The position numbers and the translations under genes are program-made. This document shows, piece by piece, positions 3,784-57,785 of a stretch of DNA of 61,278 bases. Below the pieces are notes generated by a model. The model had not been told where the DNA came from and did no database searches. It worked only from the letters and a program-made list of their open reading frames with translations. The stretch comes from a virus (Duplodnaviria; Caudoviricetes). Position 1 is the stretch's first letter. Each line of letters opens with the position of its first letter. The stretch is from the IMG/VR virus record IMGVR_UViG_3300036393_000024, positions 1 to 61,278 of that record. One strand, written 5' to 3'.

Positions 3784-4644
3784 TCAGCCCACGCGCTCGG
3801 AGCTGCCCATGCACGCTGCTGGCCCGGGTACCGCGTCGACCGCCGCGGCGACCCGGCGCGGTGCGACCAACGTGTAGATGGCGGTGGTCGTGGGCGAGGA
3901 GTGGCCGAGGAGCTCCTGCACCAACCGCAGGTCGCCGCCGGTCTGCTCGAGCACCATGGTTGCGACCCGGTGGCGCAGGGAGTGCAGCGTGTCGGGGATG
4001 CCCAGCCCGTGCAAGTAGTCGTTGCACCGGCCGCTGACGTGGTGGGCGGTCACCGGGCCGTGGCCGCGTTCGCGTCGCCAGCACGGTCCGGAGGCGGGCA
4101 GCCGTGCGGCGATGATCTGCCACGCCCAGTCCGGGATCGGGACGTTCCGCTCGACGTCGCCCTTCCCCAGCAGCCGTACCCAGCGCCGGCCGGCCGGGTC
4201 GGCGAAGAAGTCGTCGACTTGCAGCGGGGCGATCTCGCAGGCCCGCAGTCCGGACCAGCCGGCGAGCAGCAGCCAGGGCAGCAGTCTGGCGGGGGCGTCG
4301 TGCAGCATCCGCATGACGTCTCGCTCGGCCATCGGCCGGGGCAGACCGCGCCGCCGGGGCGGTACCGGCAGCAGCGCGGCCGGGTTGTCCTGCCGGTGTC
4401 CGTGCGCCTGCAGCCACCGGTAGTAGGGCCGGGCGACGCTGGTATGCCAGGCCACCGCGTCGAGCGAGATCGTTGCGTGCAGGTGGAGCTGCCAGCGGGC
4501 CAGCTGCTCGTAGGTTGCATGTGCGGGGTCGGTGCCAAGCCACTCGGCCAGCCGGACCAGCACCGAGCGCCGGGCGACCAGCGTGCGCTCGGAACGTCCG
4601 CAGAGCCGCATCCACCGCAGATGCTGCTCGAGGTGGGATGCCAT
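3784..4644 (-). CDS. Tyrosine recombinase, short XerC/resolvase-like (~286 aa)
   Basis: GLRACEI (R), GKGD (K), HSLRH (HxxR), LLGH, TAIYT (Y); no N-terminal arm-binding domain. Confidence 0.9.
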   Translation of the reverse strand: MASHLEQHLRWMRLCGRSERTLVARRSVLVRLAEWLGTDPAHATYEQLARWQLHLHATISLDAVAWHTSVARPYYRWLQAHGHRQDNPAALLPVPPRRRGLPRPMAERDVMRMLHDAPARLLPWLLLAGWSGLRACEIAPLQVDDFFADPAGRRWVRLLGKGDVERNVPIPDWAWQIIAARLPASGPCWRRERGHGPVTAHHVSGRCNDYLHGLGIPDTLHSLRHRVATMVLEQTGGDLRLVQELLGHSSPTTTAIYTLVAPRRVAAAVDAVPGPAACMGSSERVG

Positions 4645-5089
4645 GCCGAGGGGGTAGGCCGCTCCGGGGAGCTCGCCGGCGCCCGGGCCGGCGCGGCGAC
4701 CGGGGCGCCGGCGTGCTGGTGAGCGGGTACAGGTGCGCGGCACGCCGTCGCCGGTTCGCGTGGATCTGGTCGGCGAGTACGCCGCGTTTCGCGTGCTCAC
4801 ACCAGACCCTTCGCCCCCACCGGTTGCGCCGGGCCAGGAAGTGTAAGTCCAGTCAGTACCACCTGGGGGTAATCCACTGGCCTTTCTTGTTGCCGCCCCG
4901 ACTCGCCCCCGGAGTGCCCGCGCCGCATCCAACGCAGGGCCCGGGCCGGCTGCCGCCGAGCGGGCGATCTGTCGCGAAAGGCGTACGCGGCGACGGTCAT
5001 CGCTCTACCGTGATCGATGGGGTCCGGAATGGGCAGGGAGGATCGGGGGGATCCCTCGGGGAGGATTCGCGCGCGGGAGGAGCCGTCGG

Positions 5090-12000: not shown

Positions 12001-12423
12001 ATGCCGGGCCCGATCCCTGAACGCTCCGACCGCCGGCGCCGCGCCAACAAACCGGCCGTCGCCGTCGATGCCGCCCCCGCCGCGACCCGGGTGTCCGTCC
12101 CGGCCGCGAGCAAGGAGTGGCATCCCGCCGCGACCCGCTGGTACCGGTCGCTGAAGAAGTCCGGCCAGTCCCGGTTCTACGAGCCGTCGGACTGGGCGCA
12201 GGCCTGGGTGTGGGCGGAGCTGCTCTCCCGCGCGCTGGAGCAGGAGGACCGGCCGCCGGCGATGCTGATCGCCACCTGGGCGGCCGGCGCGACGGAGCTG
12301 CTCACCACCGAGGGCGCTCGGCGCCGGCTGCGGCTCGAGCTGCAGCGCCCCGGCCAGGTCGACGAGGATGCCGAGGCAGCGGTGACGGCGCTCGATGAGT
12401 TCCGCGCCCGCTACTCCTCCTGA
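12001..12423 (+). CDS. Terminase small subunit
   Basis: MPGPIPERSDRRRRAN...WYRSLKKSGQSRFYEPSDW...TTEGARRRLRLE (actinophage TerS pattern). Confidence 0.85.
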   Translation: MPGPIPERSDRRRRANKPAVAVDAAPAATRVSVPAASKEWHPAATRWYRSLKKSGQSRFYEPSDWAQAWVWAELLSRALEQEDRPPAMLIATWAAGATELLTTEGARRRLRLELQRPGQVDEDAEAAVTALDEFRARYSS

Positions 12424-14056
12424 TCTCGAGGCGCCGGCCGACCGACTCGTCACCCTGCACCCCGGTGTCCCGAAGCTGACGCTCGCCTGGGGTGCAGTGC
12501 AGTGGGCGATGGAGAACCTGCGCCAGCCCAACGGCCCGAACGCCGGCAAGCCGTGGCGCCCGATCGGCTCGCAGTTCCGGTTCCTGCTGTGGTGGTACGC
12601 CCTCGACGAGTCCGGCGAGTGGCTGTTCCACCACGGGGTGCGCCGGCTGGCCAAGGGAAGCGGCAAGAGCCCCTTCGCCGCGGTGCTGGCGCTGATGGAG
12701 TTCCTCGGGCCGGTCCGGCTGAAGGACTTCGACCCGAAGCGCGACGGCGGCTGCGTCGGCCGGCCGGTGGACATGCCGCTGGTGCAGATCGCGGCGACGG
12801 CCGAGTCGCAGACGGCGAACACGATGCGCATGGTGCGCGCGATGGCCCCGAAGGGCTCGAAGGTCGCGCTGCGCTACAACCTCGACGTCGGCAAGCAGAC
12901 CTACTACAAGTCCCCCGAGGGGACGCTGCAAGTCATCACCGCCTCGTCCACCGCCGCCGAGGGCGCCGAGGCATCGTTCATCGTCGCGGACGAGACCGAG
13001 CACTGGAAGCCCTCCAATGGCGGCCCGGATCTCGCCTCGACGCTGGAGGACAACCTCACCAAGTCCGGCAACCGGATGCTCGAGACCTGCAACGCCTGGA
13101 TGCCGGGCATGCAGAGCGTCGCCGAAGCGTCTTGGGACGGCTGGGTCGCCCAGGAGGAGGGCCGCACCCGGCCGGGGCGGCGGACGCTCTACGACGCCCG
13201 GATCGCGCCCCCCGACACCGACCTGACCGACGAGACGTCGCTGATGGCGGCGCTCGAGCACGTCTACGACGACTGCTACTGGCAGAACCTCAACCCGATC
13301 CGCGGCCGGATCTGGGACCCGAAGTCCAGCATCGACGCCAGCAAGCGCAAGTACATGAACTGGCCCACCGCCGCCGTCGACGCCTGGATGACCCAGCAGG
13401 AATGGGCGGCGCTGCGCGACCTCGACCGCGTGGTCGACCTCGGCGAGGACATCGTGATGTTCTTCGACGGCTCGAAGTCCCGGGATGCCACCGCGCTGGT
13501 CGGGTGTTGCGTGTCCGACGGGCACGTGTTCACCATCGGCGCGTGGGAACCCAAGCCCGACCACTCCGGTGACCCGGACAAGCGCTGGGAAGTCCCGGTC
13601 GCCGAGGTCGACGCGACCGTGGCCCGGGCGTTCCGGGAGTCCAACCCCCTGGCGTTCTTCGCAGACGTCAAGGAGTGGGAAGGCTTCGTCAAGGTCAACT
13701 GGCCGCAGCAGTACGCGGACCAGCTAGAGCTGCACGCGGTGCCCACCGGGAAGGAACCGCACCCGATCGCCTGGGACATGCGGACCCGGACCTACGACTT
13801 CACCATGGCCGTCGAGCTCACCGAGACCGAGATCCGGGAGCAGAAGTTCACCCACGACGGCTCCGCCGTCCTGGCCCGACACGTGACCAACGCGCGCCGG
13901 CGGCCGAACAACTGGGGCACCTCGATCGGCAAGGAGTCCCCCGACTCCCCGCTGAAGATCGACGCGGCGGTGGCGATGATCGGCGCCCGCATGGTGCGCC
14001 GGCTGCTGCTGTCCAGCGAGAACCGGAAGAAGAAGCGATCGGGCCGTTGGTGCTAA
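12395..14056 (+). CDS. Terminase large subunit
   Basis: RRLAKGSGKS (Walker A), VADETEH (Walker B), FDGSKSRDATAL nuclease, KIDAAVA. Confidence 0.95.
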   Translation: MSSAPATPPDLEAPADRLVTLHPGVPKLTLAWGAVQWAMENLRQPNGPNAGKPWRPIGSQFRFLLWWYALDESGEWLFHHGVRRLAKGSGKSPFAAVLALMEFLGPVRLKDFDPKRDGGCVGRPVDMPLVQIAATAESQTANTMRMVRAMAPKGSKVALRYNLDVGKQTYYKSPEGTLQVITASSTAAEGAEASFIVADETEHWKPSNGGPDLASTLEDNLTKSGNRMLETCNAWMPGMQSVAEASWDGWVAQEEGRTRPGRRTLYDARIAPPDTDLTDETSLMAALEHVYDDCYWQNLNPIRGRIWDPKSSIDASKRKYMNWPTAAVDAWMTQQEWAALRDLDRVVDLGEDIVMFFDGSKSRDATALVGCCVSDGHVFTIGAWEPKPDHSGDPDKRWEVPVAEVDATVARAFRESNPLAFFADVKEWEGFVKVNWPQQYADQLELHAVPTGKEPHPIAWDMRTRTYDFTMAVELTETEIREQKFTHDGSAVLARHVTNARRRPNNWGTSIGKESPDSPLKIDAAVAMIGARMVRRLLLSSENRKKKRSGRWC

Positions 14057-17181: not shown

Positions 17182-18411
17182 GTGGCGAACTCGTACATCA
17201 AGGCCCCGAAGATCGCGGCCATGGCGCTGGGCGTGCTGGAGCGCGAGATCGTGCTCCCGGCGCTGGTCTGGCGTGACGCCGGCGGCTCGTTCAAGGGCGC
17301 CCAGGGTGACACGATCACCATCCGCGTCCCGGCCCGCTCCACCGCCCGGGTCCGGCAGCTGCGCGCCAACCGCACCGCGGACTTCAACGGTGCCGGCATC
17401 ATCACCCTCGACGACCTGGCCGAGACCAGCGTCGATGTGACCCTGGACCAGGAGATCTACCACGGCACCCGGATCACCGACGAGGAGCTGACCCTCGACA
17501 TCACCGACTTCGGGACCCAGGTGCTGCTGCCGCAGGTCCGCGCGGTCGCCGAGGGCCTGGAGAACAAGCTGGCCGAGCTGATGGTCGGCGCGACCTACGC
17601 GACCACCGTCTCGATCCCCTCCAGCGGTGACGACGTGGTGTACGACGCGATGATCGACGCCCGGAAGGCGCTGAACATCGCCAACGTGCCGACCAACGAG
17701 CGGGTCGTGGTCATGGGGCCGTCGATGGAGGCCCGGTTCCTCAAGGACAACCACCTCAACCACGCCGACACCGCCGGGGACGCCAGCGCACTGCGTGACG
17801 CCACGATCGGCCGGATCGCCGGGTTCGGGCAGGTGGTGGTGTCCAACGCGCTGCCCGAGGACGTCGGGTTCGCGTTCCACCGCACCGCCTACGTGCTGTC
17901 CACCCAGGCGCCGGCGGTGCCCGACGGGGCGCCCTACGGCGCCTCCCAGTCCTACCAGGGGCTGGCCATGCGGTGGCTGCGCGACTACGACCCGGGCAAC
18001 CTGCAGGACCGCTCCATCCTGGGCACCTACGCCGGCGCGAACATCATCGCCGACGGCCCGAAGGGCGCGGAGGTCCAGACGGCCACCATCACCGGCTCGC
18101 CGACCGGCGGCAGCTTCACCCTCACCTACGCCGGCCAGACCACCGCGGCGATCGCCTACAACGCCTCCGCGGCGACCGTGCGCGACCGGCTGCGGGCGCT
18201 GAACAACCTGGACAACGACGACGTCACCGTCACCGGCAGCGCCGGCGGGCCCTACACCATCACCATCGCCGGGAAGGGCAACGTCGGGCAGATCACCGCG
18301 ACCGCGTCGCTGACCGGCGGCAGCTCGCCGGGGGTCACGATGGCCACCTCCACCGAGGGCGGGCTGGGCGACCCCAGCTTCGTCCGGGCCGTGAAGCTCG
18401 TCCTGAGCTGA
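17182..18411 (+). CDS. Major capsid protein with ~95-aa beta-rich insertion near the C-terminus
   Basis: RBS AAGGAGG; GAQGDTITIRVP, ITDEELTLDI..F..QVL, AFHRTA, WLRDYD, FVRAVKL. Confidence 0.9.
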   Translation: MANSYIKAPKIAAMALGVLEREIVLPALVWRDAGGSFKGAQGDTITIRVPARSTARVRQLRANRTADFNGAGIITLDDLAETSVDVTLDQEIYHGTRITDEELTLDITDFGTQVLLPQVRAVAEGLENKLAELMVGATYATTVSIPSSGDDVVYDAMIDARKALNIANVPTNERVVVMGPSMEARFLKDNHLNHADTAGDASALRDATIGRIAGFGQVVVSNALPEDVGFAFHRTAYVLSTQAPAVPDGAPYGASQSYQGLAMRWLRDYDPGNLQDRSILGTYAGANIIADGPKGAEVQTATITGSPTGGSFTLTYAGQTTAAIAYNASAATVRDRLRALNNLDNDDVTVTGSAGGPYTITIAGKGNVGQITATASLTGGSSPGVTMATSTEGGLGDPSFVRAVKLVLS

Positions 18412-40537: not shown

Positions 40538-41338
40538 ATGGCCACGTCCCAGAACGGCTTCCTCGCCAACAACCGGGCCCTGGTGGCCTCCCAGCGCATC
40601 CCGGGTACGCAGGTGAACATCAGCGTGCGGACCGACGCTCCGGGCCTGCTGCTGCTCGAGGTGGCCGCCGCGTTCGACCGGCTGGTCGAGGACGTGGACA
40701 ACGCCCGGGGCGCCCTGGACGACTGGGGTTACGCCGAACGCCCGATCCGTGGCGGCGGCCAGCTGTCCAACCACGCCAGCGGCACCGCCATCGACCTCAA
40801 CGCCACCCGGCACCCGCTGGGCACCTCGCCCTCGGCCAATTTCAGCGCCGCCCAGGTCGTCCAGATCCGCAGGATCGTCGCGGTCACCGGTGGCGTCGTG
40901 CGGTGGGGCGGGGACTACACGGGCCGCAAGGACCCGATGCACTTCGAGATCAACGACGGCCGGACGGTCGCCCAGTGCCGCGTCGCCCTGGACGCCATGC
41001 GCCGCTTCAACGGTTCCCCCAGCCCCCAGGAGGTCGACGTGCCGTTTCCCACCCTCAAGCTCGGCGACGGCGTGCCGGACAGGCTCGACACCGGCCCTGC
41101 CGACCCCGGCCGCCAGCACTGGTTCGTCGACAGCGTGCAGACCCTGCTCAACAGGCGGGGGCTGAAGGACGACACCGGCAAGCCCCTGCCCCCGCTGCTG
41201 GTCGACGGCCAGTTCGGCACCGCCACCGAGGCCCGGGTGAAGGTGCTGCAGAGGCGATCCGGCGTCCCGCAGACCGGTCGCGTCGATGCCGTGACCTGGT
41301 ACTGGCTGGCCGGCAACGACGCACCCGACTTCGCGTGA
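40538..41338 (+). CDS. Endolysin: M15 peptidase + peptidoglycan-binding domain
   Basis: SQNG, DDWGYAER, SNHASGTAIDLN, WGGDY..KDPMHFEI; VDGQFGTATEARVK..Q..TG.VD..TW. Confidence 0.92.
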   Translation: MATSQNGFLANNRALVASQRIPGTQVNISVRTDAPGLLLLEVAAAFDRLVEDVDNARGALDDWGYAERPIRGGGQLSNHASGTAIDLNATRHPLGTSPSANFSAAQVVQIRRIVAVTGGVVRWGGDYTGRKDPMHFEINDGRTVAQCRVALDAMRRFNGSPSPQEVDVPFPTLKLGDGVPDRLDTGPADPGRQHWFVDSVQTLLNRRGLKDDTGKPLPPLLVDGQFGTATEARVKVLQRRSGVPQTGRVDAVTWYWLAGNDAPDFA

Positions 41339-41479
41339 GCGCTGCCGTCGGCATCGCGTTCGACTCTCGTGCTGTGTGAGCAGCGCTGATGCCTAACCAC
41401 GGCTGATTCTCGGCCAGTTCTCCGTCCCGCCGCCCGGGTTCTCCGCGCGGCCATCTCGTCATGCCCGAAGGAGCTCGAG

Positions 41480-42196
41480 ATGACCCTGACCCCTGCCCAG
41501 AAGGCAGCCATCGTGGCCGCCCTGACCCTCGTTCTGGGAATCTTCGGCCTGACGGTCGTGCCGTCGAATCCGCCGAGCTCCACGCCGGCGCCGGGCAGCA
41601 GTAAGTACGCCGCCTGCGTCGCGCCGTCCGGCATGACCGCGCTGATCGACCAGGACAAGAGCGACAGCCAGAAGCCGTGGCGGATCCCGCCCGGCTCCGA
41701 CCACGCCGAGGTGTGGTTCAACGCCGCCCCGCTGGACGCGAAGGCGGTCCAGGCCGGCTGGACCCAGAGCGTCTACCTCGACTACCTGCGCAACGGCCGA
41801 GACGTGTGGAACCAGAGCCCGTGCCTGGACGTGCACGTGGTGCAGCTGGAGGGCAACTACCGGGGCCTCGACCAGTGCCCGGCCGGGAAGAACTGCGTGC
41901 CGATCGTCATCGGTGACGGAGGCGGCGACGACGGCAACTTCAACGCCCGAGAGTCGGACGGGTTCACCATCGGCGGCGACATCCAGGTGCTCCGCAAGCT
42001 GTCGGCGAACACCGACTCGAAGGGCTGCAACGAGCGCAAGAACGTCGTGGCGCACGAGATGGGGCACGCCGTCGGCCTGGTCCACCGCCGCGGCCGGGTG
42101 CTGATGAACGGCGACACCTACGGCGACATCTGCACCGCCGACCCGGACGAGTACCGCAACCTGCTCTTCGACTACGGCCGCCAGATCCGGCGCTGA
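41480..42196 (+). CDS. Secreted/membrane-anchored metzincin (matrixin-like) protease
   Basis: N-terminal hydrophobic segment; HEMGHAVGLVH + VLM Met-turn. Confidence 0.8.
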   Translation: MTLTPAQKAAIVAALTLVLGIFGLTVVPSNPPSSTPAPGSSKYAACVAPSGMTALIDQDKSDSQKPWRIPPGSDHAEVWFNAAPLDAKAVQAGWTQSVYLDYLRNGRDVWNQSPCLDVHVVQLEGNYRGLDQCPAGKNCVPIVIGDGGGDDGNFNARESDGFTIGGDIQVLRKLSANTDSKGCNERKNVVAHEMGHAVGLVHRRGRVLMNGDTYGDICTADPDEYRNLLFDYGRQIRR

Positions 42197-42210
42197 CCAG
42201 GAGGTATCCC

Positions 42211-42582
42211 ATGATCTTCGGACGTGAGCCGGCGCTGTTCTACACGCTGGTCGCCAACATCATCACCCTGGCCTCCGGCCTGGGCCTGAACCTGTCGGTC
42301 GAGCAGCAGGGCGTGCTGAACGCCATGGTCGTGCTCCTGAGCGGCTGCGTGCTGGCGTGGAAGGTCGCGACCGAGCAGGGCATCGCGCTGCTCGGCGGGG
42401 TCGCCAAGGGTCTGATCGCGCTGGCCCTGGCCTTCGGCGCGCACCTGTCCCCCGAGCTGCAGAGCTCGGCCCTTCTCGTGGTCAACCTGGCCATCGCGTT
42501 CATCGTGCGCAGCCAGGTCACCGCCCCGACCCCGCCGCGGCTCCCGGCGGGCCGTGACGAGGCCGCGGAAGTCACGCCGTGA
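42211..42582 (+). CDS. Holin
   Basis: MIFGREPAL, 4 hydrophobic segments, RSQVTAP; in lysis cassette. Confidence 0.8.
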   Translation: MIFGREPALFYTLVANIITLASGLGLNLSVEQQGVLNAMVVLLSGCVLAWKVATEQGIALLGGVAKGLIALALAFGAHLSPELQSSALLVVNLAIAFIVRSQVTAPTPPRLPAGRDEAAEVTP

Positions 42583-42607
42583 TCCTGCTCGAGCAGGAGA
42601 GCCCGCG

Positions 42608-43525
42608 ATGCCCGTGACCCAGCCGGGCGCTGTGCTCGACCTGCGGGCGTGGAAGCTCACCCTGCCGATCGAGGGCCGCAAGAACGGGAAGGGCACCGGG
42701 AAGCCCCGGGAGATCCTGCCCTCCGAGCTGGTCGCACTCAGCGCCGACGATCTCACCGGCCTCGCCCCGTACATCCGGGCGGTCACCGTCCCGGCGGCCG
42801 GTGTGGAGTTCCGGGCACCGGTGGTCGGGTTCACCACGCCCGGATCGGAGAACAAGCGCTCCGAGCTGCGCGAGATGAACGCGAAGGACCCCACCAAGCT
42901 GGCCAGCTGGTCATCGACCGACGGTGTCGGGCATACCTGCTGGCTGGACGTCACCCCGACCCGGCTCCCGACCGGCAACGCCGGCGTCGGGCTGGTCCCG
43001 CAGCAGATCCACGACGTCGACGACGACGTCGCGGTCTGGCGGATCGAGGCGTCCGGGCTGTGGCTGGCCATCGGCGACCACCGCGAGAACTGGAGGCTCA
43101 TCGACCCCGGCTACAGGGTCGGGACCCGGCTGCGGCTCGCGCTGGTCGCGGTCGCCGGCGAGATCCGCGCCTACCGCGACGGGCAGCTGGCCCACCGGTT
43201 CCCGGCGAAGGTGTCCGGCTGCTACTTCAAGGCCGGCGCCTACACCCAGGCCAACGCTGGCGCCTACCCGATGTCGGCGGCCAACTACGGGGCCGCGGTC
43301 ATCCACGACCTGCGCGTCGTCCACGGCCCTGTGCAGGCCGTCCCGGGCCCACCCGCGCCGGCCCCGGCCCCGGGCGGCGCCGCACCGGTCACCACTCCCG
43401 CGGCGCCGAGCTCCCCGGTCGTCGGCAAGCCGGTCGTGTTCGTCGCCACGCCGACCGCCGACGGCGGATGGACGCTACGCCCGGTCCCGCCCGAGCTGCT
43501 GAAGGTCGACCCGGCCACCATCTAG
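42608..43525 (+). CDS. Polysaccharide lyase family 7 (alginate-lyase-like)
   Basis: WKLTLP, RSELRE, QIH, YFKAGAYTQ: the canonical PL7 motifs. Confidence 0.85.
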   Translation: MPVTQPGAVLDLRAWKLTLPIEGRKNGKGTGKPREILPSELVALSADDLTGLAPYIRAVTVPAAGVEFRAPVVGFTTPGSENKRSELREMNAKDPTKLASWSSTDGVGHTCWLDVTPTRLPTGNAGVGLVPQQIHDVDDDVAVWRIEASGLWLAIGDHRENWRLIDPGYRVGTRLRLALVAVAGEIRAYRDGQLAHRFPAKVSGCYFKAGAYTQANAGAYPMSAANYGAAVIHDLRVVHGPVQAVPGPPAPAPAPGGAAPVTTPAAPSSPVVGKPVVFVATPTADGGWTLRPVPPELLKVDPATI

Positions 43526-43660
43526 ACCAGCCGCTCCCCTGCTCGATCCTGGTGCCCACTCCGCCCACTTCCCCGGGGCGGCGCGGGCACCACTTCATCG
43601 TGAGCCTTGCCCGGCCGGCGGGGCGTCCCCGAAGCGCCCAGTCGCCGCCGAGCACGCCAG

Positions 43661-43710
43661 GCCCCCACCCGAACCCTCTTCCTGGGTCGGGCGGGGGCTC
43701 CTTCGTGCGT
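43661..43710 (+). terminator. Putative terminator ending the late operon
   Basis: GCCCCCACCCGAACCC...GGGTCGGGCGGGGGC stem followed by tccttcgt. Confidence 0.55.
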
Positions 43711-43846
43711 TCTAGTGGCATCGCCCGGGGACATCGACGCCAGCGCCGGCCAGCCACCAGGAGCGGAGACTACGACTGGCTCCATCCGGGTGACGTTGAC
43801 CGAAAACACCCCACCCCGGTGCGGTGGCCCGGAAAGCTGTGGAGCC

Positions 43847-43963
43847 ATGGGTAACCACGACAAGCCCGACACTGACCCCAGCCAGGACGGCCAGGCGCCC
43901 GGGATCCCGCCGGAGGCCGACCCGGGCAAGCACGCCAAGGACGACGACGACGAGAAGAAGTGA
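43847..43963 (+). CDS. 38-aa putative RiPP precursor (imiditide/pamtide-like)
   Basis: MGNHDKPDTDPSQDGQAPGIPPEADPGKHAKDDDDEKK; stop overlaps methyltransferase start (GTGA). Confidence 0.7.
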   Translation: MGNHDKPDTDPSQDGQAPGIPPEADPGKHAKDDDDEKK

Positions 43964-45006
43964 TCGACTGGGCCGAGGTGATGGACCGGGTCCCTCGGGA
44001 GCGGTTCATCCCCCAGGTGATCTGGCGTCATGAGCGCGGTCGCGGCGGCAACGACCACCTTCCGGTCGACCGGGCCACCGACCCTGATGCCTGGGCCGCC
44101 ATGGTCGCTGCCGACGAGCCGGTGGTGACCCAGGTCGACAACGGCCGTCCGGCGCCCGATGGGACCGGCCGCGAGGTCACCTCCTCCAGTTCCGACCGCC
44201 GGGTCGTGCTGAACATGCTCCAGCTTCTCGACGCGCAGCCAGGCGAGCGGGTGTTGGAGATCGGCGCCGGCACTGGATGGAACGCCGCCCTGCTGGCCGG
44301 GGGCGGGGCCCAGGTGGTCAGCCTCGAGGTCGACGAGCAGTTGGCCGAGACGGCGCTCGACAACCTGGTGCTGGCCGGCTACACCGAGGTGACGGTCGTC
44401 GGTGGAGACGGCCTACTGGGCTGGTCGGTCGCGGCACCCTACGACCGGCTGATCGCCACCGTCGGGGTGGAGACCGTGCCGGCCGCCTGGGTGGAGCAGA
44501 CCCGCCTCGGCGGCCGGCTGGTGGTGCCGCTGACCAACCAGTGGCAGCCGCCCGGCACCGTGGTGCTGGAACGGACCCCGAGCGGCGCGATCGGCCGGAT
44601 CGCCGCCCGATCGGCGTTCATGTCCGTGCGCTCCCAGCACCGCAACCGGCTCGCCGGGAGCAGTTACACGGCGCCGGCGGAGGTGCGGGGACGCTGCGAT
44701 GTGCACCCGCACGCCCTGGCCGGCGACCCGGACGCAGCGACGGCGATCGGCCAGCGGGTCATGGAGATCAGTTGGTCGTGGGCCAAGTCGAACGGCTGCG
44801 GGGTGCTGCACCTGTTCGGCGGCGACGGCATCTCCTGGGCGTGGTTGGACGACGAGGGCGACACCGAACAGGCGGGCCCCCGACGGCTGCTGGACGAGGT
44901 CCTGGCCGCGTACGGCTGGTGGGTGGAGCAGAGCAAGCCCGCCCGGGAGGACTGGGTCGTGACCGTGGACCTGGACGGCCGGCAGCGGATCGAGCTACGC
45001 AGCTGA
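43960..45006 (+). CDS. PIMT-like O-methyltransferase (RiPP-associated type with C-terminal extension)
   Basis: VPRERFIP, TSSSS, VLEIGAGTGWNAALL, GDG..G...APYDRLIAT, GGRLVVP, FMSVR, C-terminal AGPRRL. Confidence 0.88.
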   Translation: MIDWAEVMDRVPRERFIPQVIWRHERGRGGNDHLPVDRATDPDAWAAMVAADEPVVTQVDNGRPAPDGTGREVTSSSSDRRVVLNMLQLLDAQPGERVLEIGAGTGWNAALLAGGGAQVVSLEVDEQLAETALDNLVLAGYTEVTVVGGDGLLGWSVAAPYDRLIATVGVETVPAAWVEQTRLGGRLVVPLTNQWQPPGTVVLERTPSGAIGRIAARSAFMSVRSQHRNRLAGSSYTAPAEVRGRCDVHPHALAGDPDAATAIGQRVMEISWSWAKSNGCGVLHLFGGDGISWAWLDDEGDTEQAGPRRLLDEVLAAYGWWVEQSKPAREDWVVTVDLDGRQRIELRS

Positions 45007-45024
45007 AGGGGATCGCCCCGGGCT

Positions 45025-45276
45025 CTACGGCCACTCCCGGTGGCCGTAGGCGGCGCAGCGGCCATCGGCGTCGAGCCTTGCCCGGCACTCCCGCCAGCCG
45101 CCGCTCATCCACATCCGGGCCCGACAGCGGCGCTGTGGCTCCGGCGGCAGCCCGGTCAGGACGCGCCGCAGCACCAGCTCGGACAAGCTGAGCCCGGCCT
45201 CGGCCGCTTCGCCGACGAGGCGCTGGTAGACCTCCGGCGGGACGCGGGCGGCCACGACCCGCTGGTGCTGGCTCAT
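45025..45276 (-). CDS. Ribbon-helix-helix-like DNA-binding protein
   Basis: VVAARVPPEVYQRL..EA...GLSLSELV. Confidence 0.55.
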   Translation of the reverse strand: MSQHQRVVAARVPPEVYQRLVGEAAEAGLSLSELVLRRVLTGLPPEPQRRCRARMWMSGGWRECRARLDADGRCAAYGHREWP

Positions 45277-45557
45277 CGGCGCCGTCCTCGGACGGCGGTG
45301 GCCGGGTCGCGGGCCCACAGGTGCGCCTTGGGGCAGCTGAGCCGGTGGTGCAAGTGCAGCCGCCGGCCGCCGGCGCGGGCGCCGAGCTGCTGTCGTGGCC
45401 CAAGCACGCCGGCGGTCGGCCGGCCGTCTGGGCCGGGCTGGCCGAGCAGGATGTTCCCGTTCGGGTCGGGGTCGGCGTCGACCGGCATCGCCTTCCCGGC
45501 CGCGGTGGTGCACCAGACGATCGCCGCCCGGCAGTGGTTACAGACCTCGCGGTTCAT
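45273..45557 (-). CDS. Hypothetical Zn-finger protein
   Basis: CNHCRAAIVW.TT..GKAMPVD..P...GN...H..SCP. Confidence 0.7.
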   Translation of the reverse strand: MNREVCNHCRAAIVWCTTAAGKAMPVDADPDPNGNILLGQPGPDGRPTAGVLGPRQQLGARAGGRRLHLHHRLSCPKAHLWARDPATAVRGRRR

Positions 45558-55472: not shown

Positions 55473-55879
55473 GAGAAGTCACCGCCGTAGAAGCTGAACC
55501 CGTCGGCGTCGAGCCATTCGCCGCGCGGCCCGACCCGATCGATTCGGCGTGGCGGGACGTCCTCCGGGTGGCCGACGCACCAGTCGTACTGCCGGCGCCG
55601 GGAGACCGGGTCGGTCGCCTCGACGCGCGCGATGAAGTCCTCGGGGACCTGGCGGTGGCCGTACTCGTCCCAGACCTCGCCGCCGTCCCGGATCAGGTCC
55701 TTCCAGCCGGCCCAGGAGGCAACGATCAGTGCCGGAGGTGCGTACAGCTTGGCCACGTTGTCCCACTCGGCCTCGGCGAAGTGGCCCTGGAAGGAGATCA
55801 GGCTCTTGCAGATGTGCAGCTCGTCGTAGCGGCCGCAGTCCGAGCAGATGTTGTGCCGCCAGTAGTAGTTCGTGCCCAT
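55469..55879 (-). CDS. Hypothetical phage protein
   Basis: MGTNYY...LHICKS...WDEYG...GDFS. Confidence 0.7.
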   Translation of the reverse strand: MGTNYYWRHNICSDCGRYDELHICKSLISFQGHFAEAEWDNVAKLYAPPALIVASWAGWKDLIRDGGEVWDEYGHRQVPEDFIARVEATDPVSRRRQYDWCVGHPEDVPPRRIDRVGPRGEWLDADGFSFYGGDFS

Positions 55880-57279
55880 TAGCTGGTCGCTCCCCGGGTG
55901 GCCGCCTCCGGGTCGGTGACGCACCGTTCGATGTCGGAGAGCTCGTAGCCCCACGCGGCCAGCTGGCCGAGGTAGAACCGGTCCACGCCCCGGTGCCCAC
56001 CGGTTGGCGATCGCCAGCAGTGCACGTCGGTGGTGTTCTCCCACGCGGCCAGCAGGGTCGCGGCCGCGAGCACCAGGGCCCGCTTCGAGCTGGCGCCCGG
56101 GCTCAGGAAGCCCTGCAGCTGCTCGTCGATCCGGGTCGTGGGCCCGGCTTCGTCGGGCTCAAGGAGATGCCGCAGCAGCTCGTGGTGGTTCTCGATGGCA
56201 CGGCGCAGGCAGTCGTCGCGGCGCAGCAGCGCGGCCGCGATGAACTGCTCGGCGCCGGCGGGCGGCCGGGTGCGGCGGGCGAACTCAGCCAGCCAGCGCC
56301 GCCGCACCTGCTCGGCCGCCCGCCATGCCCGGTTGCCGGCGATCACGTCGGCGCGGTCCTGGCGGGCCGCTTCCGCGTCGAGGGTGCCCGACGCCCCACC
56401 CGCGTGCACCCGGCGCTGGGTGCACACGTACTCGGCCCGCCACGTCCACTCAGTGCGGCCGTGGACGTAGCTGTTGCCCTGGCTGAGGTACGCGGCGTGC
56501 CCGGGGCAGTCCCGGTGCTTGGCCGGCGTGATCCCGAGGGACTGCAGCGTGCTGGTGCTCGACCAGTCCACCCGCTCGAGCGCGGTGACTCCGGCGGCGG
56601 CGAGCTCAGCGGCGACCCGGGCCCGCGCGGCGGCCGACAGGCGGTCGTCGCGGGCCCGCTGCACCGCGTGGTCGAACAGGCCCCGGCCGGCGGCTGCAGT
56701 CAGCTCCTCGACGACGTCGGGCTCGTCATCGAACTCGGCGATCGCGGCGGCCTGCGCCAGGTTCAGATCAGGGTGGGTGACGGTCACCGCGCGGGCGGTG
56801 GCGCTGGCCGCGACCGCCAGAGCCGCGTCGACGTCGCCGCGGCGCAGCGCAGAGCGTCGCACGATCTCGCCTGCGGGGATCCCGATCAGCGCCAGCTGTT
56901 GCACCGCGATGGCCCGGTCGGCGGTGGTGTTCGGGGCCCGGTGCGCGTTCTCCACCAGCTGGTCGAACAGCCGGCTCTCGTCCTCCGGCGGCACGGTGAG
57001 CATCACCGGCACCCACGGCAGCCCTTCGGCGGCGGCGAAGTAGGCGCGCCGCTGCCCCATGTGCACCTGAACCCGCCCGTCGTGCAGGTAGGCGACGATG
57101 GGCTGCAGCACCCCCCGGGCGCGGATCGAGGCGGACATCTCCGGATCCGGGGTGACGTCGACGCGCACGTTGCGGCCCAGCACCAGCTCCCCGGGCGGCA
57201 TCCGGTACACCCGGGTGCCCAGCTCGGGCTCCCCGGCCAGCAGCTCGGCGGTCGTGATCACCCGCTCCTCGGTGTTCAC
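55879..57279 (-). CDS. Second, large ParB-N-domain protein
   Basis: GRNVR...SIRARGVLQPI...GQRR...QLVENAHR; long C-terminal region with CPGH. Confidence 0.8.
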   Translation of the reverse strand: MNTEERVITTAELLAGEPELGTRVYRMPPGELVLGRNVRVDVTPDPEMSASIRARGVLQPIVAYLHDGRVQVHMGQRRAYFAAAEGLPWVPVMLTVPPEDESRLFDQLVENAHRAPNTTADRAIAVQQLALIGIPAGEIVRRSALRRGDVDAALAVAASATARAVTVTHPDLNLAQAAAIAEFDDEPDVVEELTAAAGRGLFDHAVQRARDDRLSAAARARVAAELAAAGVTALERVDWSSTSTLQSLGITPAKHRDCPGHAAYLSQGNSYVHGRTEWTWRAEYVCTQRRVHAGGASGTLDAEAARQDRADVIAGNRAWRAAEQVRRRWLAEFARRTRPPAGAEQFIAAALLRRDDCLRRAIENHHELLRHLLEPDEAGPTTRIDEQLQGFLSPGASSKRALVLAAATLLAAWENTTDVHCWRSPTGGHRGVDRFYLGQLAAWGYELSDIERCVTDPEAATRGATS

Positions 57280-57785
57280 CTCGACGTCCCTCCGCGCCCG
57301 CCGCTCGCCGGCCGCCTGTCCCGCCACAGCCCGCTGGTAACGCCGTTAACACCGGGGGCGGACGGGATCCGGCTGACCCCGGTCACCGCCTCCGACACCA
57401 CCTCGATGCCCATGAGCCGCTCCGCCACGTCCCGGTCCGAGATGAGGGCCTCCGGGACACAGCCGTGCTCGCAGCGCAGGCTCTGCGTCACCCCGAACAC
57501 CCGGCAGATCAGCGGCCGCACTTCGTAGACCCGGCAGGTGTTCAGCCCGGACAGCGCTGGGCACCGCACCCGCTCACCGGCGGCCACCCGGCCCCGGAGC
57601 GCCATCTGCTCGCCCCGGTCGGGCAGCTCCACCCCGCGCGCCCGCAGCCGTTCCCGCTCGAGCTCGGAGGCGTCGATGACGGTGCAGGAGTCGTGGCAGA
57701 GGCCTCGGCACACGATCCCGGGCACCGAGTCGTACAGCTCGTCGAGCTGCTCGAGCGCCTCGGTGCGGGTGGGCCGGGCCTTCAC
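57276..57785 (-). CDS. YkgJ-like cysteine-cluster protein
   Basis: CRGLCHDSC...CPAL...CRVYEVRPLICR. Confidence 0.8.
   Translation of the reverse strand: MKARPTRTEALEQLDELYDSVPGIVCRGLCHDSCTVIDASELERERLRARGVELPDRGEQMALRGRVAAGERVRCPALSGLNTCRVYEVRPLICRVFGVTQSLRCEHGCVPEALISDRDVAERLMGIEVVSEAVTGVSRIPSAPGVNGVTSGLWRDRRPASGGRGGTSR
57336..57350. promoter_or_regulatory. 15-bp parS-like palindrome, copy 7
   Basis: GGTAACGCCGTTAAC, about 57 bp upstream of the second ParB-like gene. Confidence 0.7.

Follow-up and report, generated by a model that had tools for sequence, protein, structure and literature searches.

A probable imiditide/type I pamtide cassette of two genes beside the lysis genes of a temperate actinophage

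The subject of this report is a pair of adjacent genes in the IMG/VR virus record IMGVR_UViG_3300036393_000024, which is classed as a provirus and was estimated by CheckV to be 91% complete. The record was analysed as a single stretch of 61,278 bases, called the window below. Judged by sequence and architecture, the pair belongs to the imiditide/type I pamtide class of RiPPs (peptides that are synthesized ribosomally and modified post-translationally), with a chemistry that is predicted. The complete reading, that the cassette is carried by a temperate actinophage and that its enzyme acts on Asp14 of the peptide, is in our judgement probable. The same type had been proposed in an earlier note, drawn up from the letters alone, on the basis of a minimal precursor gene next to a homologue of protein L-isoaspartyl O-methyltransferase (PIMT); the layout, peptide composition, C-terminal domain and enzyme trees all agree with that proposal. 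The class itself is already known: imiditides and type I pamtides were recently defined, and 670 imiditide and 1414 type I pamtide clusters have been predicted. What is new is the phage context. The parts of the pair are as follows.

43847-43963, + strand: precursor peptide gene of 38 codons encoding MGNHDKPDTDPSQDGQAPGIPPEADPGKHAKDDDDEKK, with an ATG start and a TGA stop at 43961-43963
43886-43891, + strand: codons of Asp14-Gly15, the sole Asp-Gly of the peptide and the predicted methylation/aspartimide site
43960-45006, + strand: predicted PIMT-like peptide aspartyl O-methyltransferase (PAMT) of 348 amino acids, with a GTG start
44257-44280, + strand: motif EIGAGTGW (residues 100-107) for binding S-adenosylmethionine (SAM), aligned with the motif of solved PIMTs
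44647-45003, + strand: extra C-terminal domain (residues ~230-348) beyond canonical Pcm, presumed to serve substrate recognition
44920-44940, + strand: WVEQSKP, the counterpart of WXXXGXP, with Ser for Gly

These parts show the sequence features by which the class is recognized, apart from the Ser for Gly in the WXXXGXP counterpart. The layout is that of two genes, with an open reading frame (ORF) in the range of 30-75 amino acids that contains Asp and adjoins the enzyme, and a conserved Asp lies near Pro and Gly. The enzyme has a PIMT domain and an additional C-terminal domain of more than 100 amino acids, and no other RiPP enzyme was found among the nearest genes.

First, the small ORF is a real and conserved gene, as comparison across related loci indicates. 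DNA around relatives of the enzyme was collected from 80 genome loci (one genome per species), 80 metagenome loci and loci in IMG/VR, and the frames ending just 5' of each enzyme gene were listed. At 16 other loci, a homologue of the window peptide was found together with a related methyltransferase. Pseudonocardia acaciae accounts for two of them, metagenome-assembled genomes (Mycobacteriales, Pseudonocardiaceae) hold several, and others are on soil-metagenome contigs. The pairs at two of the 16 loci are identical, and one copy was excluded, so that the peptide alignment holds 16 sequences. Their consensus is MGxHDKPxPxxDPxxDGQAPGxxPPPPDPGKHxKK, and the relatives are 50-69% identical to the window peptide. 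M1, D14 and D25 are invariant in all 16, and H4, P21, P26, G27, H29 and K31 are conserved in at least 90%. More than one synonymous codon is used in 10 of the 11 conserved residue columns, and one Gly and two Pro columns use four each. Therefore selection acts on the protein, and the fear that the small ORF would prove not to be conserved upstream of homologues is not borne out. At third codon positions, the small frame has a G+C content of 0.92 and the large frame one of 0.91, like other genes of the window, whose overall G+C is 71.6%. The earlier description of a charged, Pro/Gly-rich peptide of 38 residues with one Asp-Gly can be read directly from frame and composition: it contains nine Asp, six Pro, four Gly and five Lys. 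It was also correct on the gene junction, where the GTGA at 43960-43963 is common to both genes and supplies the peptide stop and the GTG start of the methyltransferase. Of 17 loci, 14 retain this 4-nt overlap of stop and start, in the form (G/A)TGA. Many relatives also have a GGAA(A/G)G element some 10 nt 5' of the peptide start.

Two of the invariant residues are Asp, and they differ in what follows. The residue after D14 is Gly in 12 and Ala in four of the aligned peptides, whereas in 15 of 16 the residue after D25 is Pro, which lacks a backbone N-H and cannot close an imide ring. Because of this, Asp14 is taken as the predicted target of modification.

Second, the family model that fits the methyltransferase best is one of the RiPP type. 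The Pfam PCMT match is confined to residues 76-196 (E 7e-29), and the best NCBIfam match, TIGR04188 (ATP-grasp peptide-system methyltransferase), covers residues 4-342 and model positions 16-362 of 363 (E 3.4e-68), with a score of 230.6 bits that lies under its cut-off of 380. The FxLD/lanthipeptide model TIGR04364 scores 119.8 bits against a cut-off of 320 and is matched only over model positions 56-184 of 394. The whole length is matched by PHROG 13505, annotated 'methyltransferase' (E 8e-75). From 37 relatives, AlphaFold2 gave a confident model, with a mean predicted local distance difference test score (pLDDT) of 94.2 and a predicted template modelling score of 0.90. In the SAM-binding motif, E100, G104, G106 and W107 are invariant in the 37 aligned relatives. 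The spans of TIGR04188 and PCMT confirm that a C-terminal extension lies beyond housekeeping Pcm, as had been noticed from the sequence.

It is scarcely credible that the enzyme is an auxiliary repair isoaspartyl methyltransferase preceded by a chance frame. The PCMT domain match and a fold resembling solved PIMTs would fit that view. However, the equivalog models of repair Pcm give only 81-107 bits against cut-offs of 159-359 (for example, TIGR00080 85.9 against 159 and NF001453 106.8 against 188), and they match the N-terminal domain only, at about residues 72-196 of 348. Unlike canonical Pcm, a single-domain protein of about 210 amino acids, the enzyme has the C-terminal domain in addition, and the small ORF is conserved as protein; these data contradict a repair role. 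Clustering with repair Pcm, which would have spoken against a RiPP enzyme, is thus not found on family scores, by which the comparison was made, as the trees held no Pcm rows.

The C-terminal domain is predicted to consist of strand 242-245, helix 250-266, strands 270-277, 280-287, 293-297 and 301-305 and helix 310-323, followed by two strands. In the model, the order strand-helix-four strands-helix matches an arrangement shared with the PIMT of Thermotoga maritima. A block near the C-terminus, made of Q304, G306, R308, E313, W321, P327 and W332, is invariant in the 37 relatives. Within the WXXXGXP counterpart, all 37 have W321 and P327; at position 325, 33 have Gly, two have Ser (the window enzyme and its closest relative), one has Ala and one Arg. 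Searching the PDB by sequence returned canonical PIMTs and no solved RiPP-type enzyme, and the matches to these PIMTs are limited to profile positions from about 77 to 225. By structure, the top Foldseek match is 1DL5, which covers both domains (E 1e-20, 361 columns, TM-scores 0.53/0.58), and single-domain PIMTs come next.

Third, the enzymes and their upstream peptides vary together. Peptides upstream of 174 enzyme rows were sorted into classes by rough regular expressions.

39 loci: Gly/Ser-rich type of Streptomyces/Kitasatospora
19 loci: 'RDGH' type
15 loci: 'LPGxPW...PDGG' type
14 loci: window type by regular expression (15 with L017 added by hand; 17 with L110 and L114, whose enzyme frames are outside the 174 rows)
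11 loci: 'DGxWD' type of Actinomadura
8 loci: Cys-rich type II
4 loci: ATP-grasp genes upstream
64 loci: unclassified peptide

Trees were built with FastTree (172 rows) and IQ-TREE in quick mode (69 rows). The root was placed either at the midpoint or on the graspetide and Cys-rich types, and the rows included no Pcm, lanthipeptide-linked or lasso-linked enzymes, for which family-model scores stand in. Two soil-metagenome copies form the sister group of the window enzyme (support 99), and the clade that contains them all, with a support of 98-100, consists mostly of enzymes that go with the window-type peptide. In both trees the window enzyme stands apart from the graspetide-linked and Cys-rich-type enzymes and groups with those of two-gene clusters; no ATP-grasp gene lies upstream of it, unlike at L101, L103, L105 and L107. 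Of the phylogeny that the earlier note had called for, the separation from graspetide and Cys-rich types is therefore in hand, and the placement against Pcm, lanthipeptide and lasso enzymes is outside the tree rows. In the 69-row tree, the S, P, A, Cys-rich and graspetide groups form one clade each, and the peptide labels need 13 changes against a mean of 44.1 after shuffling. Enzyme clades thus track peptide types, and therefore enzyme and peptide diversify together, as expected of an enzyme and its substrate.

Enzymes of this kind methylate a specific Asp of a linear precursor, which gives species of +14 and -18 Da (PMC13001092; PMC10787088; 10.1101/2023.04.07.536058). By the example of these characterized relatives, the window pair would work in the following order. 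The peptide and methyltransferase genes would be translationally coupled, and the extra C-terminal domain would let the enzyme bind the linear 38-residue peptide. The enzyme would then transfer a methyl group from SAM to the Asp14 side chain, and the backbone nitrogen of Gly15 would attack the methyl ester to form an aspartimide (-18 Da). Because the next residue in the chain is Gly, the aspartimide is expected to form fast and then to hydrolyse largely to isoaspartate.

Binding of the two products was also modelled. The enzyme, SAM and the peptide were predicted together in three runs with three controls, using custom alignments and a ligand, for which calibration is rough. The median of the interface score ipSAE is 0.43 (runs 0.43, 0.55 and 0.02), and the best control reaches 0.02. 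The mark set on this score is reached by 58 of 80 solved complexes and two of 110 mismatched pairs, and it is reached at 0.60 or less by only seven of the 80 solved complexes and by both mismatches. Between runs, at least 11% of contacts are in common, and the partner pLDDT is 31 or more. The predicted complex therefore gives weak support and makes a small addition to the case.

It is this step that leaves room for a different substrate. The enzyme might mainly modify a larger protein of phage or host, with the small peptide acting as regulator, decoy or chaperone. According to PMC10787088, some PAMTs are thought to act on an FHA-domain protein, 1410 PAMTs adjoin FHA-domain proteins with Pro/Gly-rich tails, and 3653 have no recognized substrate. 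Moreover, the complex prediction is weak, and charge complementarity between peptide and enzyme is lacking, so that the recognition mode is open. Against a larger substrate, the peptide co-varies with the enzyme clade, its Asp-Gly/Ala is invariant, the two genes are coupled in 14 of 17 loci, and no FHA-domain or similar Pro/Gly-rich protein adjoins the pair. We consider a larger substrate quite improbable, and the peptide remains the preferred one.

The pair lies inside a prophage, because phage genes flank it on both sides. The genes concerned were identified by PHROG and Pfam scans.

1-1664, + strand: ParA- and ParB-like genes, at the left edge and outside the integrase
3784-4932, - strand: tyrosine integrase
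12395-14056, + strand: large terminase
17182-18411, + strand: major head protein (PHROG 283, residues 1-225)
40538-41338, + strand: endolysin
41480-42196, + strand: gene without assigned function, between endolysin and holin
42211-42582, + strand: holin
42554-43525, + strand: Alginate_lyase2-domain protein of 323 amino acids (PF08787, E 1e-21), its start overlapping the holin end
43550-43592, + strand: G+C-rich hairpin I1 with 17-nt arms (88% complementary), possible late/lysis-operon terminator
~43660-43700: G+C-rich hairpin, like 43550-43592 in the 320-nt gap 5' of the peptide gene
43847-45006, + strand: peptide-methyltransferase cassette, directly 3' of the lysis region (40538-43525)
45025-45049, no strand assigned: hairpin I3 with a perfect 10-bp stem (100% complementary), possible two-way terminator
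from 45273 onwards, - strand: genes matching PHROG 5984, 21481 and 25695, small families of unassigned function
55879-57327, - strand: ParB-like protein

The phage location named in the earlier note is upheld by the provirus class, the integrase, terminase, capsid and lysis genes upstream and the PHROG families downstream. The lysis region gives matches to PHROG 1512 (E 8e-37) and PHROG 9752 (E 3e-21). The Alginate_lyase2-domain protein has no PHROG match, and its domain suggests that it may be a polysaccharide-degrading lysis accessory or a depolymerase. A scan of the window found no tRNA genes, and the prophage ends and attachment sites were not found. As a separate observation, residues ~290-390 of the head protein match families annotated as major tail protein or tail sheath; this part is probably a shared Ig-like decoration domain.

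Separate transcription of the pair is plausible. The hairpin at 43550-43592 begins 25 nt past the last stop codon of the late arm (fold z-score -2.0) and is without a clear U-tract, and that at 45025-45049 (fold z-score -2.3 on the + strand) stands where two convergent genes meet, 19 nt past the methyltransferase stop. A consensus scan of 43300-45400 gave no sigma-70-like promoter and no + strand terminator; its single terminator-like site is on the - strand (43827-43811), against 0.3 expected. The idea that the pair forms its own unit between terminators thus stands as far as hairpins occur on both sides, and finds no + strand terminator or promoter in that scan. In such a position the pair would be accessory cargo, or a 'moron', at the junction of the lysis genes and the other prophage arm. 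Among the nearest genes on each side, the only ones scanned, there is no ATP-grasp, LanB/LanC or lasso cyclase gene. Neither a protease nor an exporter turned up in the flanking genes examined, which makes it probable that the product works within the cell or gets out when the cell lyses. In PADLOC, the core of the methyltransferase (residues 79-199) resembles positions 276-404 of the 492 in the mad2 model, which belongs to the candidate defence system 'mads' (E 1.4e-19). Membership of that system was set aside, as the likeness is at the level of the domain only.

Similar pairs occur in cultured phages. A tblastn search of 50,697 phage records returned eight records from five Streptomyces venezuelae phages of the genus Austintatiousvirus (Alderaan, Bioscum, Ididsumtinwong, Austintatious and PapayaSalad), with full-length homologues of 36-38% identity and 96-97% coverage. 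In the three phages examined further, Alderaan (HQ601_00034/00033), Bioscum (gp25/gp24) and Austintatious (gp25/gp24), a small gene 9 nt upstream encodes MSGKHGGGSGSGSGGSQQDDSS..GGNSSDGSGPAK, and the pair lies between lysis genes converging on it and an XRE/Cro regulatory region. As in the window, an Asp-Gly peptide gene is directly upstream of the homologue, beside lysis genes. The Austintatiousvirus pair differs in several ways: its peptide is of the Gly/Ser-rich type of Streptomyces chromosomes, its enzyme nests in a Streptomyces chromosomal clade, the two genes are separated by the 9-nt gap instead of overlapping, and the pair points against the late genes, whereas that of the window points with them. 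It also follows two small genes. These two also precede the cassette in one Streptomyces chromosomal locus, with 57-68% identity (L076:4082-4482, L001:1939-2435), and the Austintatiousvirus-type unit may be a module of four genes. The genes are annotated only as O-methyltransferase and hypothetical protein, and the word 'methyltransferase' occurs nowhere in the Alderaan genome paper (PMC7650747).

In IMG/VR, 21 loci were obtained by a profile scan: 12 have a type I-like peptide, four a Cys-rich peptide, four an ATP-grasp gene upstream and one none of these. Three of the 12 type I-like loci are Austintatiousvirus or near-copies. Many IMG/VR loci are near the ends of predicted proviruses, and phage context was checked for some only. 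At one of these (L096), one flank has a serine integrase and a regulator, and the opposite flank has a holin homologue together with endolysin and tail-fibre genes; a second (L094) has, 2.5 kb upstream, an endolysin 66% identical to that of Alderaan; a third (L095) has an Amidase_2 protein upstream and an XRE regulator downstream. Eight rows of the 69-row tree have a checked phage context, and placing them takes five changes of the phage/cell label, whose direction was not inferred. The Cys-rich precursors in IMG/VR provirus records resemble those of type II pamtides/cysimiditides (L098, L100, L104, L106), and graspetide-like ATP-grasp genes adjoin related methyltransferases in others (L101, L103, L105, L107); both sets may lie in phage or in host flanks.

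In cells, the surroundings are of another kind. The closest cellular copies, two in Pseudonocardia acaciae and one metagenome locus (L111), sit among transporters, dehydrogenases, kinases and regulators by Pfam. The 80 genome loci have 146 nearest-neighbour ORFs, in which HTH_31 (15), DUF5753 (10), HTH_3 (10) and DUF6879 (6) are the families that occur most often, and no phage hallmark is among the 25 commonest of 178 neighbour families, a list in which single phage genes could be missed. Searched with tblastn against all fetched loci, the proteins of the window gave only stray matches, from three proteins. The proposal that the whole class is prophage-borne was rejected, since cellular copies have ordinary chromosomal surroundings and no hallmark is among those 25 families. 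Phage carriage is thus recurrent but a minority state.

As side observations on these loci, no family sits immediately beside cellular cassettes more often than XRE-type regulators (HTH_31 with DUF5753), which make up 15 of the 146 neighbour ORFs (L007-L086), and homologues of the Bioscum HTH protein gp29 occur in the fetched flanks of 33 loci with all peptide types (L002:1025-1834). Such a neighbour could be a conserved cluster regulator, or could reflect the mere abundance of the family in actinomycetes.

Whether the pair benefits the phage has to be weighed against the view that the phage picked it up from a host not long ago as neutral cargo and is in the course of losing it. The closest relatives of the pair are chromosomal, the motif Gly is Ser, and the end branch of the window enzyme is 0.51 long against 0.18-0.25 for its sisters, all of which would suit such a state. 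However, both frames are intact with a high third-position G+C and the enzyme model is confident, and such pairs stand beside lysis genes in five separate phage lineages, including five cultured phages that keep both genes. Recurrence beside lysis genes in separate lineages therefore argues for selection, and neutral cargo is improbable.

Several observations nevertheless weigh against a functional, phage-borne imiditide cassette. The Gly of WXXXGXP is replaced by Ser in the window enzyme, no promoter-like site was found in 43300-45400, and one of the three complex runs scored 0.02. Peptide and enzyme C-terminal domain carry like net charges, -6 each by calculation; because both are acidic, the charge-charge recognition of the imiditide pair NmaA/NmaM cannot apply in the same form. 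Furthermore, since the closest cellular copies are chromosomal and phage carriage is the minority state, phage carriage need not mean a phage-specific function.

As to what the pair does for the phage, our best guess, weakly held, is that it serves in conflicts, either with other phages or with the defences of the host. A more specific version, in which temperate actinophages repeatedly captured host imiditide cassettes beside their lysis genes and the peptide acts inside the cell on another phage or on host defence, for instance in superinfection exclusion or counter-defence, is a tentative and rather doubtful proposal. By analogy, such a role would parallel that of intracellular anti-phage lanthipeptides with a PIMT-type enzyme. 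No function is known for any imiditide, and in a 2026 review (PMC13001092) function is named the main open problem. The words 'phage', 'prophage' and 'virus'/'viral' have no occurrence in PMC13001092, PMC10787088 or the imiditide preprint (10.1101/2023.04.07.536058), and no report of a phage-borne imiditide was found in the literature searched; the published cluster tables (670 and 1414) are outside this coverage and may list such copies or the peptide type of the window. If capture and a conflict role are true, this would be the first biological function for the RiPP class. Cultured carriers such as Alderaan, which grows on Streptomyces venezuelae, make the role of a function-less class testable, and actinophage genes annotated 'O-methyltransferase' and 'hypothetical protein' are hereby flagged as a RiPP pathway.

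The nearest described system is the imiditide mNmaA(M) of Nonomuraea maritima, compared here by published description and not by sequence alignment (10.1101/2023.04.07.536058; PMC13001092). It has the same two-gene cluster, with the precursor immediately upstream of NmaM, a PIMT homologue that has a C-terminal domain of ~150 amino acids, an addition which the window enzyme shares; NmaM acts on a linear peptide. In NmaA, as in the window peptide, Gly, Pro, Lys and Asp are abundant, and there are conserved residues of Gly, His, Pro and Lys. NmaA differs in being a basic peptide of 46 amino acids whose modified Asp28 is followed by His, whereas the window peptide has 38 residues, a charge of -6 and a predicted site at Asp14-Gly. 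NmaA/NmaM pairs a basic peptide with an acidic C-terminal domain; in the window both are acidic, the motif Gly is Ser and the location is a prophage.

The type I pamtide pair SpaA/SpaM of Streptomyces sparsogenes is similar in outline (PMC10787088). Its precursor of ~45 amino acids is rich in Gly, Pro and Asp and is encoded without a cyclase, with a conserved Asp near conserved Pro/Gly and conserved charged termini, and the expected outcome, as here, is intermediates of +14 and -18 Da that end in isoaspartate. It differs in precursor sub-type and in being chromosomal in that paper, against the prophage location in the window. The Gly/Ser-rich peptides of the 39 Streptomyces-type loci likewise differ from the window type.

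Among repair enzymes, the PIMT of Thermotoga maritima (1DL5) is termed, in PMC10787088, the only solved member of the clade with a C-terminal domain. It differs from the window enzyme in its 20-21% identity, a root-mean-square deviation of ~9 A and the placement of its domains, and is a repair enzyme without a partner peptide.

Finally, the lanthivirins, or 'lanthiphage' class I lanthipeptide clusters, are also RiPPs of Actinobacteria with a PIMT-type methyltransferase domain. According to two preprints (10.1101/2024.06.26.600839; 10.64898/2026.08.26.747419), lanthipeptide clusters with a PIMT domain protect Streptomyces from phages, mostly lack exporters, seemingly act inside the cell and are commoner on prophages and plasmids. 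Lanthivirins differ in that they need LanB and LanC and form thioether rings, with the methyltransferase as a tailoring enzyme. In these sources an anti-phage function is shown for lanthivirins and for no imiditide, so that the likeness in role serves as a lead only.

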